From: Clostridium sp. 28_17
GTDB lineage: Bacteria; Bacillota; Clostridia; TANB77; CAG-508
Assembly: GCA_001916065.1 (NCBI GenBank)
Contig: MNRS01000019.1
Span: 31,948-95,947, forward strand
Reading direction: 5' to 3'
Length of the DNA: 64,000 bases
Position numbers and translations under genes: made by a program. Under the pieces are notes generated by a model. It searched no databases and was not told the DNA's origin. It saw nothing but the letters and a program-made list of their open reading frames with translations. Numbering within the stretch: the first letter of the stretch is position 1; each line of letters starts with the position of its first letter. Below, piece by piece: positions 5,240-11,685 of this stretch.

Positions 5240-5791
5240 ATGGAAAATTATTTTATAATACATGGCTCATTTGGGAGCCCTTTTGGAAACTGGTTTAGTT
5301 GGTTACAAGATTTTATATCAACAGACAACAAACAAGTATATGTACCAGATTTTCCAATAGGAGTAGGATATCAAAATTATGAAAATTGGAGTAAGTTATT
5401 AAAATATTATTTAGATTTAGAACTTATAAATGAAAATACAACAATTATAGGTCATAGTATAGCACCAATATTTATATCAAAATTTTTAGTTGAAAATAAA
5501 GTGAAAGTTAAGAAGTTAATATTCGTATGTGGATTTAATAATTATCTAGGAATTAATGAAGAATATGATAATGTTAATAAAACAATGTATTTTGATAACT
5601 TGCAAGATGTACAACAATATGCTAACGAAATTATTTGTTTCTATTCAGATAATGACCCATATGTGAGATATGAAGTAGAAAAAGAATTTGCGGATACAGT
5701 TGCGACAGAACAAGTTTTAATACATAATGGTGGTCATATCAATAGCGAAAGTGGATACGATACATTTGAAGAAATAGTAAGTTATTTATAA
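5240..5791 (+). CDS. Alpha/beta hydrolase, YdeN/RBBP9-like serine hydrolase family
   Basis: N-terminal IIHGSFGSP..NWF and GHSIA nucleophile elbow. Confidence 0.5.
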   Translation: MENYFIIHGSFGSPFGNWFSWLQDFISTDNKQVYVPDFPIGVGYQNYENWSKLLKYYLDLELINENTTIIGHSIAPIFISKFLVENKVKVKKLIFVCGFNNYLGINEEYDNVNKTMYFDNLQDVQQYANEIICFYSDNDPYVRYEVEKEFADTVATEQVLIHNGGHINSESGYDTFEEIVSYL

Positions 5792-6219: not shown

Positions 6220-6414
6220 ATGCTTTATAAAATTAAGTCAAGGAAAATAAAGTTAGGAAAATTAAATTTTTACATTATAGATGATAATTATATTAAATAT
6301 TTAAGTCAATTTGATAAACATATTGCTTATAATAAAAATGAAAAAAGACCATATATAGGAGTTGTAATTATTGTTGAAGAGCATTGTTATTTTGTACTCC
6401 ACTTATCGCAATAA
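6220..6414 (+). pseudogene. Truncated type III toxin ToxN/AbiQ-like N-terminal fragment
   Basis: LNFYIIDDNYIKYLSQFDKHIAYNKNEKRPYIGVVIIVEEHCYFVLHLSQ resembles ToxN/AbiQ N-terminus (KFYTI..YI.YL..FD..V......RPY.G.V......Y.APL.S) but stops after 64 aa; no intact ToxI repeat array upstream. Confidence 0.4.
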
Positions 6415-6422
6415 AATTTAAA

Positions 6423-6453
6423 AGGAAGTGTTTGGAAAAATACTTCCTTTTTT
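6423..6453 (+). terminator. Rho-independent terminator
   Basis: GGAAGTGTTTGGAAAAATACTTCC hairpin followed by T7. Confidence 0.5.
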
Positions 6454-6611
6454 TAACTATTTATGATATAGTTATCATAAATAATCATTATATTAATATA
6501 CAAGAAAAAACTTAATACGAATACAGTTAGTTTTGATAAAAATAAAACTAAAAAATAATGATAATGCATAACAGATAAAATAAAAAAATACTAATAAAAG
6601 AAGGAATATAT

Positions 6612-7691
6612 ATGTTAAAAGACTTATGTTTTGAAATAATACAAACATGCCCTAATAAATGCAAATTTTGTTCTTCAAATTCCTCAAAAGACAAAACAAC
6701 AATAATAACAATAGAAGACTTTAAGAAAACAGTTATGTATTTTATTACTCATGGTGGAATTGGAGAAATATCAATTTCAGGAGGAGAACCTTTTTTACAT
6801 CCAGATTTATTCGAAATGATAAAGTTTTGTAAAGACAATGGAATTAGAACAGTTATATTCACCAGTGGAATAAAAAGAACACCAGCAATACCAGAAAAAA
6901 CAATAGAATATATAAAAAATAAATGTAAAAAAGATTTAGAAGAAATAGAAGAACATGAACCATGGAATGAAAGACTAAAAAGAAATGTGAAGGCGTATTA
7001 TAAAAGAATGATTAATCCAGGAGAATTTACTTCACTAACAAGGCAAGAACTAGAAAAAATAAAAGAATTAGGAGTAGATAAAATCGTATTTGATTGGCAA
7101 GCATTAGATGAAAATATTGATAATGAGTTAATGGGAAGAAAAGCATTAAATACATATCTAATAGATTCTTTGGTTAGAGCAAGCATTGTTGGATTAAATG
7201 TAGATGTTCATTTTATTCCTATGAAACCAAATTATAGACAATTTCCAGATATCATAGAATGTTTAGAAATTTCAAAAGTAAAAAATATAAGTATTTTAAA
7301 TTTTGTACCACAAGGTAGAGGACTAGAAAACAAACAAGACTTGATGTTAAATGAAACAGAGCTAAGAGAATTTAGTGAAATATTAAAAAAAGAAAAAGAA
7401 AAATATAGCGGTAACATAAGAATTGGAATTCCATTAAATGGAAAAATGTCTCATTTATGCACAGCAGGAACTGAAAAATTAGATATAAAATATGATGGAA
7501 CAATACTTCCATGTCCAGCATTTAAAGAAATGACCGTAGAAAAAATGGAAAAATATGGTATAAAATTACATAGTATATATGAGGATTTGGAAAAAGTAGT
7601 TTTACATGAGGGAAAAAGAAAATTACCATTATGTAAGCAAGTTTATGGATTTAATGGAGAATTGACAGAAAGTGAAGAGATAGAGTTTTAA
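6612..7691 (+). CDS. Radical SAM enzyme of unknown function
   Basis: CPNKCKFC (CX3CX2C) at residues 13-20, ISISGGEPFLH glycine-rich SAM motif, C-terminal Cys triad (C-x19-C-x44-C) suggestive of auxiliary cluster. Confidence 0.8.
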   Translation: MLKDLCFEIIQTCPNKCKFCSSNSSKDKTTIITIEDFKKTVMYFITHGGIGEISISGGEPFLHPDLFEMIKFCKDNGIRTVIFTSGIKRTPAIPEKTIEYIKNKCKKDLEEIEEHEPWNERLKRNVKAYYKRMINPGEFTSLTRQELEKIKELGVDKIVFDWQALDENIDNELMGRKALNTYLIDSLVRASIVGLNVDVHFIPMKPNYRQFPDIIECLEISKVKNISILNFVPQGRGLENKQDLMLNETELREFSEILKKEKEKYSGNIRIGIPLNGKMSHLCTAGTEKLDIKYDGTILPCPAFKEMTVEKMEKYGIKLHSIYEDLEKVVLHEGKRKLPLCKQVYGFNGELTESEEIEF

Positions 7692-7703
7692 GGAGGAATA
7701 TTT

Positions 7704-8234
7704 ATGAAAATATTAATAGGAACAAAAAATCCAGGAAAAATAGAAGGAGCAAAACAAGCATTTGAAAAATATTTTGATAAAGTAGAAATAGAAGGAATAC
7801 CAGTAGATTCAAATGTAGGAGACCAACCAATAAATGAAGAAATACTTCAAGGAGCAAAAAATAGAGTGGAAAATCTAAAAGAATATGCTTCAAAAAACAA
7901 TATAAAAGCAGACTTTTATATTTCAAGTGAAGCTGGTATCACAGATTCTTTAGGAGAATGGATTGACATAAATGCAGTAGTGGTGGAGGATTCAAAAGAA
8001 TTCCAAAGTATAGGAACAAGCCAAGGATTTCCAATTCCTGATAAATACATTGATGAAATTAAAGCAACAGAACTTGGAAAAGTTATGGACAAGATATTTG
8101 ATGGACAAGAATTAGGCAAAGGAAAAGGCGGAATAAGTTACTTAACAAAAAATGAAGTATCAAGAATTGATTTAACAAGAACTGCGTTCATTATGGCACT
8201 AACAAAACACATTAATGGAGACATATGGAGATAG
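7704..8234 (+). CDS. Inosine/xanthosine triphosphatase, YjjX (NTPase_I-T) family
   Basis: KILIGTKNPGKIEGAKQAF...SSEAGI...GEW layout resembles YjjX; start 12 nt after radical SAM stop with AGGAGG. Confidence 0.65.
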   Translation: MKILIGTKNPGKIEGAKQAFEKYFDKVEIEGIPVDSNVGDQPINEEILQGAKNRVENLKEYASKNNIKADFYISSEAGITDSLGEWIDINAVVVEDSKEFQSIGTSQGFPIPDKYIDEIKATELGKVMDKIFDGQELGKGKGGISYLTKNEVSRIDLTRTAFIMALTKHINGDIWR

Positions 8235-8313
8235 AAATTACATTTATTTTAATTCTTATAAAAAGAGAATTGAAAGATGTATAAGAGAAAAATATAAAAA
8301 AGGAGATAAATAA

Positions 8314-9198
8314 ATGAATAAAATAATTATAGAAGTAGGGTCAACATGTTTAAAAATAGACAATTATGATGGGAATAAAATAAAAAAATTAGATGGAATT
8401 ACAATACAATTCAAAAAACATTATAACGAAGACAAAAAGTTAAGAGAAAATGATGTGAAAGAACTAATAAAAAAAGTAAATGAATTAAAATCAATTTCTA
8501 AAGACATATATGTATGTGGAACAAGCATTTTCAGAACCTTAAATAAAGAAGAAAGAGAAAAATTCTTAAAAAGATTCAAAAATGAAACAGGATACGATTT
8601 CAACATAATATCTCAAGAAAGTGAAAATGAATTAACTGTATTAGGGGCAACCAGATTTGTAAAAGACAAAGTTTGTGTATTCATTGGTGGAGGAGGTTCT
8701 ACTGAAATTGCAATTTATGATAAGGAAATAAAAGAAAGTGTTAATACAAATATTGGAGTTATAGATGTAATGCAAGAATTTCCTGATTTAGCGGAAAATT
8801 ATGCAACAACTGATTTAGAAGAAGTAAAAGCATTTATTAAGGAAAGACTAAATTTACCAAAACAAAAAGCAGATATATTAATATTGGCAGGTGGTGGACA
8901 TGAAAAGTTTGCCAGAAACTCAGGAATAAAATATGAAGAAAATACTTTATACAAAGATAATTCAGAACCAATTATGATGGACATAGAAACAAGAAGAAAG
9001 GAAACAGAGAGATATTATAAGTCTATTTCTTTAGATGAGATAAGACAAAGAGTTAAAGACCCAGATTGGTGGTATGCTACAAGAGCAATGTCTGCATTTG
9101 CATTAGTGGTTGCAGAAGCAATAGATGCAAAATATATTGTTCCAACAGATATAGCAATGGCATACGGAATTATAAAAGATGGAGACAATAAAAAGTAA
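8314..9198 (+). CDS. Ppx/GppA phosphatase family protein (paralog)
   Basis: IEVGSTCLK, VCGTSIFR, ISQESENELTVLG, VFIGGGGSTEI motifs. Confidence 0.7.
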   Translation: MNKIIIEVGSTCLKIDNYDGNKIKKLDGITIQFKKHYNEDKKLRENDVKELIKKVNELKSISKDIYVCGTSIFRTLNKEEREKFLKRFKNETGYDFNIISQESENELTVLGATRFVKDKVCVFIGGGGSTEIAIYDKEIKESVNTNIGVIDVMQEFPDLAENYATTDLEEVKAFIKERLNLPKQKADILILAGGGHEKFARNSGIKYEENTLYKDNSEPIMMDIETRRKETERYYKSISLDEIRQRVKDPDWWYATRAMSAFALVVAEAIDAKYIVPTDIAMAYGIIKDGDNKK

Positions 9199-9218
9199 AT
9201 TTGAAAAAGGAGATAAAT

Positions 9219-9659
9219 ATGGTTGTTATAGCAGGGTGTTTAATCGTAAAAAATAATAAGATATTAATGGTAAAAGAAGCCAAAAAGAAATGTTATGGAC
9301 AATGGAACTTTCCAGCAGGCCATGTAGAGGAAAATGAATTGGTAACAGATGCAGCAATTAGAGAGGCTTATGAGGAAACAGGTTGCAAAGTAAAATTAAC
9401 AGGAGTATTGCCAATAAGTACAGCGTATTTAAAAGAAAAAGAAACGGCAATAATTATAAAATTCACAGCAGATGTTATTGAAGAAAATATCAAATTTAAT
9501 ACAAAAGAGATATTAGATGTAAAATGGTTAGATTTAGATAAAGTTAGAAATATGACAAAAGATGAACTAAGAGGATATGATACAGCACTTCAAGACATAA
9601 AAGACCTTGAGAATAAAAAAATATATCCATTAGATATTTTTAATAACAAAATATACTAG
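9219..9659 (+). CDS. NUDIX hydrolase
   Basis: Nudix box GHVEENELVTDAAIREAYEETGCKV; ATG at 9219 with AGGAG RBS. Confidence 0.75.
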   Translation: MVVIAGCLIVKNNKILMVKEAKKKCYGQWNFPAGHVEENELVTDAAIREAYEETGCKVKLTGVLPISTAYLKEKETAIIIKFTADVIEENIKFNTKEILDVKWLDLDKVRNMTKDELRGYDTALQDIKDLENKKIYPLDIFNNKIY

Positions 9660-9713: not shown

Positions 9714-10544
9714 ATGATATATCTAAAAACATTTAAATTAAGTGAAAGCAGAAGCACAGACCCCAATATATATCCATTTTGCATATTCAAAAATAAAGAA
9801 CCAAATATATTTGTATTCGACGACATCACAGTACTATATGGAAACAATGGGAGTGGAAAATCAACAATATTAAACATGATTGCACACAAATTAAACTTAA
9901 AAGGCAAAGAACGAAACTATTCTAGAATTGACGGATGGTGGCCATATTTTGAAAACTATTCAAATGAATGTGAATATGAACTAGGAGTAAACGAATATGG
10001 AAGTAGACTAACTAAAATTCCTACAAATAGTAGATATATAAAAAGCGAAGAGATATTATATGAAATTAGGAAAATACAACAAGATGCAGTCTTACAAGAA
10101 AGCATAGAAAGTACTCTAACCAAAGAAAGAGGAAGAAAAAATGCAAAAGATTTTTTAAAAACAAAAGAAGGTGGAAAACAATTTCCAAGATTTGCATTTG
10201 CGCAAGATAAATATTCAAATGGAGAAACAACATTACAAATATTAGAAGAGGATATTGAACCAGATAAATTATATTTATTAGATGAGCCAGAAGTGTCACT
10301 TTCACCACAAAATCAAGTAAAACTTGCAGAAAAAATAAATGAAATGGCAAGATATCTCGGAGTTCAATTCGTTATAGCAACTCATTCTCCATTTATGTTA
10401 GGAATATTAAATGCAAAAATATACAATTTAGACACAAAAGATTATAGAGTAGAAAAATGGAATGAACTTGAAAATGTAAGATATTTTTATAACTTTTTCA
10501 AAAGTAAAAAAGAAGAATTTGAAGATTATTATAAAAAGATATAA
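9714..10544 (+). CDS. Small ABC-type (AAA_21-like) P-loop ATPase
   Basis: Walker A GNNGSGKST, Walker B LYLLDEPE, H-loop ATHSP; 276 aa, no transmembrane or second domain. Confidence 0.7.
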   Translation: MIYLKTFKLSESRSTDPNIYPFCIFKNKEPNIFVFDDITVLYGNNGSGKSTILNMIAHKLNLKGKERNYSRIDGWWPYFENYSNECEYELGVNEYGSRLTKIPTNSRYIKSEEILYEIRKIQQDAVLQESIESTLTKERGRKNAKDFLKTKEGGKQFPRFAFAQDKYSNGETTLQILEEDIEPDKLYLLDEPEVSLSPQNQVKLAEKINEMARYLGVQFVIATHSPFMLGILNAKIYNLDTKDYRVEKWNELENVRYFYNFFKSKKEEFEDYYKKI

Positions 10545-11237: not shown

Positions 11238-11271
11238 ATGACATATTATGAAAAAAAGAGAGGAAATATTC

Positions 11272-11685
11272 ATGTTAAAAATAAATTTAGGTGGAACTTG
11301 CGGTAATAGCAAGTGGAGAAATGAATTAATTGAAAAATTAAATAAAAAAATTGAATATAGAAATCCAGTTGTGAAAAACGGAACATGGAAATATAACAAA
11401 ACGATAAAATTAAAGAAAGAAAATGATATGAGAGAATGTGATTATTTAGTTTATGTAATAACACCAAGACAAAAAGGTTTTAGTTCAATTGCATCAGCCG
11501 TTGATTATAGCAATAAAGTTCCTAAAAAGGTTATATTTTGTATTTTAAAAGAATATGAAAATGAAAAATTTGAAGGTCACCAATTAGAAAGTATTAATTA
11601 TGTTGAAGATATAATAAAAAATAATGGTGGACTAATTCTAGAAAATTTAGATCAAATTGCTGAATTTTTAAATAATAAATGTTAA
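11272..11685 (+). CDS. Nucleoside 2-deoxyribosyltransferase-like (DNPH1/Rcl-like, SLOG-fold) protein
   Basis: Size and CDYLVYVITP....SSIASAVDY region resemble the flavodoxin-like deoxyribosyltransferase family; assignment tentative. Confidence 0.4.
   Translation: MLKINLGGTCGNSKWRNELIEKLNKKIEYRNPVVKNGTWKYNKTIKLKKENDMRECDYLVYVITPRQKGFSSIASAVDYSNKVPKKVIFCILKEYENEKFEGHQLESINYVEDIIKNNGGLILENLDQIAEFLNNKC

Follow-up and report, generated by a model that had tools for sequence, protein, structure and literature searches.

To our knowledge, only a few radical SAM (S-adenosylmethionine) enzymes act on free nucleotides, for example MoaA, viperin, QueE and OxsB, and each of these has revealed new chemistry or new antiviral biology. 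Enzymes of the SPASM/twitch group, such as PqqE, SuiB, SkfB, CteB and BtrN, have a CX3CX2C core that is followed by a CX9-15GX4C β-hairpin domain, and the twitch domain has been described as a truncated SPASM domain with one auxiliary cluster (PMC9012708). In MoaA, a twitch-type enzyme acting on a nucleotide, the auxiliary cluster has three cysteine ligands and an open iron site, which binds the substrate (PMC9012708). In this study, we analysed a gene on a 64 000 nt stretch of DNA from Clostridium sp. 28_17 (contig MNRS01000019.1), the whole of which is referred to here as the window. The 359 aa product of this gene, which starts with MLKDLCFEIIQTCPNKCKFCSS, had been interpreted in a sequence-only reading as a radical SAM enzyme with viperin-like features, a twitch-like C terminus and a nucleotide substrate. 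We show here that it is a genuine radical SAM protein, marked by a twitch-like domain and a characteristic insertion, and that it lies outside every described family. The gene appears to represent a new subfamily of the SPASM/twitch group and to encode a functional enzyme, for which we tentatively favour a nucleotide-derived substrate, a proposal whose chances we put at nearly, although not quite, even. A literature search found nothing on this family.

Membership of the radical SAM superfamily is evident from the cluster motif, the GGE element and the Pfam score. The cysteines of the protein are residues 6, 13, 17, 20, 73, 105, 217, 283, 301 and 341; C13, C17 and C20 make up the CX3CX2C motif and ISISGGEPFLH occupies residues 53-63, so that both of these elements, already pointed out by the sequence-only reading, are confirmed. 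The Pfam model Radical_SAM (PF04055) matches with 68.7 bits against a gathering cut-off of 29.5 (E = 9e-19) and is, together with Fer4_12, the only Pfam domain found in the protein, whose N terminus is kept in all homologues. In an AlphaFold2 model based on 71 sequences (pLDDT 90.7, pTM 0.87) the (β/α)6 core is predicted with confidence. None of the curated NCBIfam families reaches its cut-off with this protein. The best score is that of PqqE (TIGR02109, 83.2 bits against a cut-off of 381), whose match goes beyond the generic core to residues 129-335, the start of the SPASM domain included, and other scores include those for the tungsten-cofactor maturase (62.5 against 380), archaeal MoaA (TIGR02668, 55.5 against 325), MoaA (TIGR02666, 43.5 against 284), viperin (NF038283, 41.6 against 180) and BlsE (35 against 400). 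The identities considered and rejected, namely viperin, MoaA, PqqE, QueE, the PflA/NrdG-type activases and BlsE, are all far below the family cut-offs. When the model was compared with the PDB using Foldseek, SuiB (1.5e-15) and SkfB (6e-14) came first, with BlsE (rank 7) and PqqE also among the top matches; viperins and MoaA followed at about 1e-11. These matches all have TM-scores of 0.5-0.63 and therefore the protein has no close solved relative. The comparison with profiles and structures, which had been named as a check on the sequence-only reading, thus yielded no full-length match to a characterised family and ranked the SPASM/twitch enzymes before the viperins both by sequence and by fold.

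The resemblance to auxiliary-cluster domains that had been suggested for the C-terminal region holds, but the cysteine spacing given for it, C-x19-C-x44-C, has to be corrected to C283-x17-C301-x39-C341. C283-x12-G296-x4-C301 corresponds to CX9-15GX4C, with which the SPASM/twitch motif begins, and in the model strands 289-292 and 297-299 form the expected β-hairpin after the core. Helices come next, with C341 on the final one (residues 340-345); the cluster itself is predicted. The nearest relatives run on with CX2CX5CX3C...C whereas the protein studied here stops after C341, and therefore we regard the domain as a SPASM domain shortened to a twitch-like one. No match to the seven-cysteine SPASM model PF13186 was obtained, only the first half of the motif and one further cysteine being present. 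In 37 sequences with 53-98% identity, C6, C13, C17, C20, H281, C283, C301 and C341 are invariant and C105 and C217 vary, so that the domain has three invariant cysteines as compared with the four of the BtrN domain. A second feature that distinguishes the family from known SPASM/twitch enzymes is the two-helix insertion after β3, with helices at residues 95-115 and 120-134 in the model. The insertion is absent from the relatives P0334 and P0144 and from all sister clades, and phmmer matches break into two stretches around it. Furthermore, C6 falls in a profile alignment on R17 of MoaA, one of the three arginines substituted in the triple mutant of PDB entry 2fb2, and it probably lines the substrate cavity.

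Homologues are numerous, with 1156 in a set of 5.8 billion proteins, all of them unnamed or annotated as "radical SAM protein", and the gene is present in 161 GTDB species. For the analysis of its context, 80 loci were retrieved and examined together with the window (81 loci in all), with open reading frames (ORFs) called and then clustered. Nearly all of the 80 loci are from gut Clostridia that have not been cultured (68-98% identity) or from RF39-like Bacilli (53-61%), the latter including "Mycoplasma sp. CAG", and sequence conservation over these two bacterial classes mostly tracks taxonomy. One member of the family, P0145, has tryptophan at positions where glycine is otherwise invariant (SISWWEPFLH, PQWRGR), which suggests that its genome reads TGA as glycine (code 25, Gracilibacteria-like) and was translated with TGA as tryptophan; if this holds, the family is also present in candidate-phyla-radiation bacteria. 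The radical SAM ORF is split in three of the loci (L030, 6001-6222; L063, 6001-6309; L067, 5301-5609) and the adjoining YjjX gene is truncated in L004 (7093-7233), in each case through a frameshift, an assembly error or decay.

In an exhaustive phmmer search the next proteins beyond the family were SPASM proteins of 310-375 aa with E-values of 1e-28 to 1e-50, compared with a similarity at the level of about 1e-12 for PqqE. These sister clades (the groups of P0252, P0299, P0332 and P0369) are the nearest relatives, with 25-42% identity and the shared motifs HF(I/V)PM..N, F(V/I)PQGRG and C(T)AG...DG.V.PCPAF. Unlike the family itself, they keep the full seven-cysteine SPASM domain and lack the helical insertion, and they have conserved partners of their own; no member has been characterised. 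In seven of the relatives (P0252, P0271-P0276) the N terminus is extended by a MazG-like domain of about 105 aa, which matches Pfam MazG with 22.1 bits, at the threshold, has an invariant ExxE...EExxD pattern and, as a profile against the PDB, retrieves MazG-like chains only (2q73, 2q5z, 1vmg; E = 0.05-0.27). Others are found beside genes linked to nucleotides or DNA bases, which are listed for the individual loci in the table together with the features of the window. A fusion to a nucleoside 2-deoxyribosyltransferase (NDT) occurs in P0242, a single case on a 3 kb contig whose sole backing is the overlapping NDT gene in L097. The contig of P0138, of only 1.6 kb, offered no gene context that could be used. 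A precedent for radical SAM chemistry in such a setting is gp53 of phage M6, a glycinyl-thymine isomerase that acts on a modified DNA base and is encoded in a cluster with a 5-hydroxymethyldeoxyuridine (5-hmdU) DNA kinase (PMC8989533). The sister clades likewise adjoin HMUDK_hel genes, whereas the gene studied here has no such cluster around it, and gp53 resembles spore photoproduct lyase rather than SPASM/twitch enzymes (PMC8989533).

The survey of the sister clades also brought to light a recurrent undescribed cassette (L095, 3345-7496; L091, 6001-8661; L109-L111, L117-L121, L124-L126 and L128), in which a radical SAM-SPASM gene is combined with a gene for a protein of about 500 aa, with or without DUF2284 and in some cases with Nmad2, HMUDK_hel and ThsB_TIR. 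Including a metagenome scan, 14 loci have the radical SAM gene beside this same partner, often with DUF2284. The partner has no Pfam or PDB sequence match; residues H129, H132, H179-D180, H282, H331 and D352 are invariant, and a H..HD..H..H..D pattern can be made out by eye, to which we give no weight. We regard the cassette as a candidate system for nucleotide modification or defence. The MazG-radical SAM/Nmad3 pair is accompanied by a conserved protein, about 200 aa long, that contains an NWWYHYYS motif and gave no Pfam or PADLOC match (L081, 5145-5729; L084, 4697-5311 on the minus strand; L088, 5143-5748). DUF2284 also lies downstream of P0144 and P0334, the nearest relatives without the insertion.

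In the window, the gene that follows is separated from the TAA stop codon of the radical SAM gene (7689-7691) by a 12 nt spacer before its ATG at 7704. That spacer and its AGGAGG sequence had been described correctly in the sequence-only reading, as had the nature of the downstream gene, a YjjX-type inosine/xanthosine triphosphatase that scores above the cut-off of its family, and the two genes are probably co-transcribed here. However, the idea of a conserved operon with YjjX had to be rejected. YjjX is the next gene in just 6 of the 81 loci, which are the window, L001-L003 (at least 97% identity) and L031/L032, and already in L005, at 91% identity, a HAD gene takes its place. Spacers of 0-45 nt are also found before many unrelated downstream genes, and a short distance is therefore no mark of YjjX in particular. 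Pyrophosphatases of nucleoside triphosphates from unrelated families (NUDIX, Ham1 and YjjX) are nevertheless enriched next to the gene. In different species the adjacent slot is filled by one of four NUDIX subfamilies, YjjX, HD or Ham1, and the NUDIX, YjjX and HD genes are each found 0-45 nt downstream in different species. In a Pfam census, 150 immediate neighbours included 16 NUDIX, five NTPase_I-T, five Ham1 and four HD genes, as against four NUDIX and two Ham1 among 150 genes at least four positions off. With local hidden Markov models, NUDIX, Ham1 or YjjX was identified in 31 of 152 immediate neighbours and in 30 of 442 genes at least four positions away (Fisher P = 8e-6), and the enrichment persists when distinct gene clusters are counted (10/103 immediate against 9/318 distant, P = 0.01). 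The frequency of these genes is 18-22% at positions ±1 and goes down to 5-8% at ±4 to 6. Thus, the argument from coupling to YjjX, on which the nucleotide substrate had originally been based, is weak, whereas the conclusion itself gains support from this enrichment and from the MazG fusion and the nucleotide and DNA-base gene clusters of the sister clades.

It is this neighbour enrichment, together with the gene fusions and surroundings seen in the nearest relatives, that leads us to favour a nucleotide-derived substrate, and the alignment of C6 with R17 of MoaA may be added to the evidence. A functional parallel is provided by BlsE (cytosylglucuronate decarboxylase) and OxsB/OxsA (oxetanocin), as radical SAM enzymes that use nucleoside or nucleotide sugars as substrates. 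The partner of OxsB is an HD phosphohydrolase, and this combination is similar to that of a radical SAM protein with a nucleoside triphosphate (NTP) hydrolase. However, neither BlsE nor OxsB has a specific sequence relationship to the protein described here, and OxsB is B12-dependent. We infer a two-cluster mechanism in which C283, C301 and C341 would hold the auxiliary cluster. The N-terminal [4Fe-4S] cluster would reductively cleave SAM to give a 5'-deoxyadenosyl radical, which would then abstract hydrogen from a substrate positioned between both clusters, while the auxiliary cluster would accept or return an electron. With only three cysteine ligands, as in MoaA, the auxiliary cluster may anchor the substrate too; its fourth site might be occupied by C6 or H281 or be left open as in MoaA (PMC9012708). 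C6 could serve as the fourth auxiliary-cluster ligand or, alternatively, as a hydrogen-atom donor. The chemistry could be a dehydration, an oxidation, a rearrangement or an alkylation, and the neighbouring NTP pyrophosphatases, YjjX in the window and NUDIX or Ham1 elsewhere, might either supply the monophosphate or clear a non-canonical triphosphate.

Several observations weigh against a nucleotide-derived substrate. The enrichment among the neighbours is of limited size, the loci are related to each other by descent and the signal comes largely from the Clostridia clade; in the RF39-like Bacilli the gene is usually placed after rplM-rpsI with no nucleotide hydrolase beside it. The region is generally rich in genes for small hydrolases. 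As a whole it is a series of short housekeeping genes, unrelated to one another and located on the leading strand, and therefore the proximity may be incidental. The protein has no identified residue pattern that is diagnostic of nucleotide binding, and its best structural matches are peptide-modifying enzymes. In addition, homologues of the relatives' Nmad3, Nmad2, DCD, NDT, DUF2284, HMUDK and ~500 aa partner proteins were found neither near members of the family nor in the window. The conserved partners of the relatives (the ~500 aa protein, DUF2284 and Nmad2/3) are thus absent from these loci, and therefore the function may have changed. Finally, the MazG match is at threshold only and the NDT fusion is a single case.

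The explanation that competes best with a nucleotide-derived substrate, which we nevertheless consider rather unlikely, is that the gene encodes a stand-alone housekeeping enzyme, acting on rRNA or tRNA, on a sugar or cyclitol in the manner of a BtrN-like dehydrogenase or on a cofactor precursor, and that the hydrolase genes are next to it by coincidence. This would be in agreement with the variable, single-gene-like context, with the reduced genomes in which the gene occurs, with its place behind the ribosomal protein genes in the RF39-like genomes and with the RumA-type RNA methyltransferases at position -1 or -2 in several Clostridia. Furthermore, no Rfam RNA or riboswitch was found upstream of the gene, between positions 5500 and 12500 of the window or in 11 related loci. 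However, the protein has no TRAM, THUMP, PUA or other RNA-binding domain, and a housekeeping role of this kind leaves unexplained both the enrichment of NTP pyrophosphatases and the nucleotide-linked contexts and fusions of the relatives.

A second alternative, suggested by the fold, is that the protein is a maturase of peptides or proteins, comparable to SuiB, SkfB, PqqE or the sactisynthases, which would form a cross-link in a small precursor peptide of the type that is made on the ribosome and modified after translation (RiPP). The top matches are indeed SPASM/twitch maturases, not only in the structural comparison but also by sequence (PqqE, 6e-12; CteB, 5wgg, 1e-9). We nevertheless judge this to be improbable. 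With the cluster motif starting at residue 13 there is no space for an N-terminal RiPP recognition element domain, and the protein has, unlike the known enzymes, no peptide-recognition domain. No conserved small ORF, protease, PqqD-like or PqqA-like gene or exporter was found alongside, a search by which ORFs of less than 60 aa were not systematically covered, and the neighbours change in nearly every species. In addition, only half a SPASM domain is present and the TM-scores are modest.

A viperin-like function, as the resemblance noted in the sequence-only reading might suggest, is less probable again, and in our view very improbable. In this case the enzyme would turn one of the triphosphates CTP, UTP and GTP into a chain terminator of the 3'-deoxy-3',4'-didehydro type as an antiviral defence, with YjjX shielding the host. 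In its favour are the similar CxxxCxxC and GGEP regions, the overall fold class and the plausibility of an NTP substrate for both, the weak similarity to the prokaryotic viperin (pVip) and viperin models, the presence of viperins among the fold matches, a truncated AbiQ gene and a PtuA/AriA-like ATPase gene nearby and the defence-island-like settings of the sister clades. However, the similarity is confined to residues ~6-100 (PADLOC pVip, 47.5 bits, residues 6-99; NF038283, residues 7-100; PDB viperins, residues 8-86 only), which is the part common to the whole MoaA/viperin/SPASM group. Viperins have a single-cluster architecture, in which a C-terminal extension binds the NTP, and lack the auxiliary-cluster domain that is present here, the neighbour census contains no nucleotide kinase partner, and sequence conservation (53-98% identity) largely follows taxonomy over two bacterial classes. 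There is no match to phage or defence models outside the generic core, and searches of phage records gave no match to the protein and, for the sister protein P0299, only distant generic radical SAM matches.

Lastly, a divergent MoaA, that is, a GTP 3',8-cyclase for molybdenum cofactor synthesis, is scarcely tenable and already contradicted by the residue and score tests: although the sequences of β1 and the cluster loop are MoaA-like, the C-terminal domain has three cysteines and there are weak model matches, the GTP-binding residues R17, K163 and R192 (Staphylococcus aureus numbering) are replaced by C6, D198 and S227/I228, the C-terminal CX2CX13C motif is absent, and no moaB, moaC, moaD or moaE is found in the neighbour censuses.

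With regard to the remaining features of the locus, the window has a G+C content of about 26% and almost every gene is on the plus strand. The radical SAM gene is preceded by a terminator-like hairpin with a T-run, which probably sets it apart from the upstream AbiQ fragment. Straight after YjjX, at 8239-8281 (plus strand), lies a stable AT-rich hairpin without a T-run (-11.8 kcal/mol, z = -4.0), possibly a terminator of low strength or else a site of processing at the boundary of a radical SAM-YjjX unit. Based on these two hairpins, the radical SAM and YjjX genes may form a bicistronic unit in this genome. A promoter and terminator consensus scan performed no better than on shuffled sequence.

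The 64 aa ORF at 6220-6414 (plus strand) is similar to a ToxN/AbiQ type III toxin in the N-terminal third of the latter only (Pfam ToxN_toxin, 43 bits, profile positions 1-47 of 159; PADLOC AbiQ, 48.6 bits) and probably represents what is left of an abortive-infection toxin after truncation; a 15 nt repeat in about 2.6 copies is located at 6229-6266. Downstream, a 276 aa AAA_15/AAA_21 ATPase (9714-10544, plus strand) gives PADLOC matches of up to 60.8 bits to the AriA, PtuA, GajA and mad3 ATPases. It has no nuclease partner alongside, accompanies YjjX in L001-L003 and may be a remnant or solo defence-type ATPase. The NUDIX gene at 9201-9659 matches the PADLOC phage-defence candidate PDC-S07 with 56.3 bits, which may be generic NUDIX similarity. 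Like the Ppx/GppA-like gene before it, it belongs to the nucleotide-phosphate hydrolases. Two short Ppx/GppA-like paralogues of about 295 aa (1415-2302 and 8314-9198, plus strand) cover the N-terminal half of the profile only, and copies recur near the radical SAM gene in 17 related loci at variable positions. An NDT-like gene (11248-11685, plus strand; PF15891, 33.9 bits) overlaps the start of YrdC/Sua5 at 11679; in L066 and L080 the radical SAM gene likewise has NDT-like genes at its side, and in L045 one such gene is located three genes upstream.

Table 1. Features of the window and loci of the sister clades
Feature	Position or locus	Strand	Remarks
Terminator-like hairpin with T-run, 5' of the radical SAM gene	6420..6457	+	-15.8 kcal/mol, z = -4.8
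Radical SAM enzyme gene	6612..7691	+	359 aa; end coordinate counts the stop codon
Invariant C6 codon	6627..6629	+	Strand β1, seven residues ahead of the cluster motif
C13-x3-C17-x2-C20 codons, predicted ligands of the SAM-binding [4Fe-4S] cluster	6648..6671	+	Invariant in 37 sequences, 53-98% identity
GGEP (residues 57-60), SAM-binding 'GGE' element	6780..6791	+	Invariant in alignments A2 and A3
Two-helix hairpin insertion after β3, residues ~90-135	6879..7016	+	Family-specific; conserved E116-P-W-N119 turn
Twitch-like (truncated SPASM) domain, residues 283-345	7458..7646	+	C283-x12-G296-x4-C301, β-hairpin 289-299, C341 helix
AGGAGG ribosome-binding site of the downstream gene	7691..7696	+	Shares the last base of the radical SAM stop codon
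YjjX-type inosine/xanthosine triphosphatase	7704..8234	+	TIGR00258, 137.3 bits against 117.1; Pfam NTPase_I-T, 1.4e-44
Ppx/GppA-like gene	8314-9198	+	Pfam; position varies among related loci; context only
NUDIX gene	9201-9659	+	Pfam; position varies among related loci; context only
P0275	L081-L083		Nmad3 adjacent
P0285	L088		Nmad3 adjacent
P0299	L089/L090		Nmad3 adjacent; DCD/dUTPase-like and NDT genes
P0291	L084/L085		Nmad3, ThsB_TIR and SLATT in the vicinity
P0303	L086/L087		DCD (L087 only), DUF2284
P0332	L095/L096		Operon ThsB_TIR - Nmad2 - HMUDK_hel - radical SAM - 509 aa protein
P0369	L097		NDT - radical SAM - HMUDK_hel - TAGT; NDT gene overlaps the radical SAM gene
P0377	L098		UDG-SocA fusion overlapping the radical SAM gene

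Taking these findings further, we put forward, as a speculative and on the whole rather doubtful proposal, that the gene and its relatives may make up a clade, so far overlooked, of radical SAM enzymes that modify nucleotides or nucleobases and are distinct from MoaA, viperin and QueE. The full-SPASM members of such a clade would function in mobile modification or defence cassettes (with MazG, Nmad2/3, 5-hmdU-kinase-like proteins, NDT, UDG and TIR), and the branch described here would be a chromosomal twitch derivative that makes or repairs a non-canonical nucleotide in gut bacteria with reduced genomes, with NUDIX, Ham1 or YjjX handling the triphosphate. If the link to nucleotides is coincidental, the protein is one more of about 165 000 uncharacterised SPASM/twitch proteins (PMC9012708). 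If it is true, this family, widespread in uncultured gut bacteria of humans and animals, linked to house-cleaning enzymes of nucleotide metabolism and related to enzymes of DNA-modification or defence cassettes, would give concrete access, by cloning, to a nucleotide transformation that is new.

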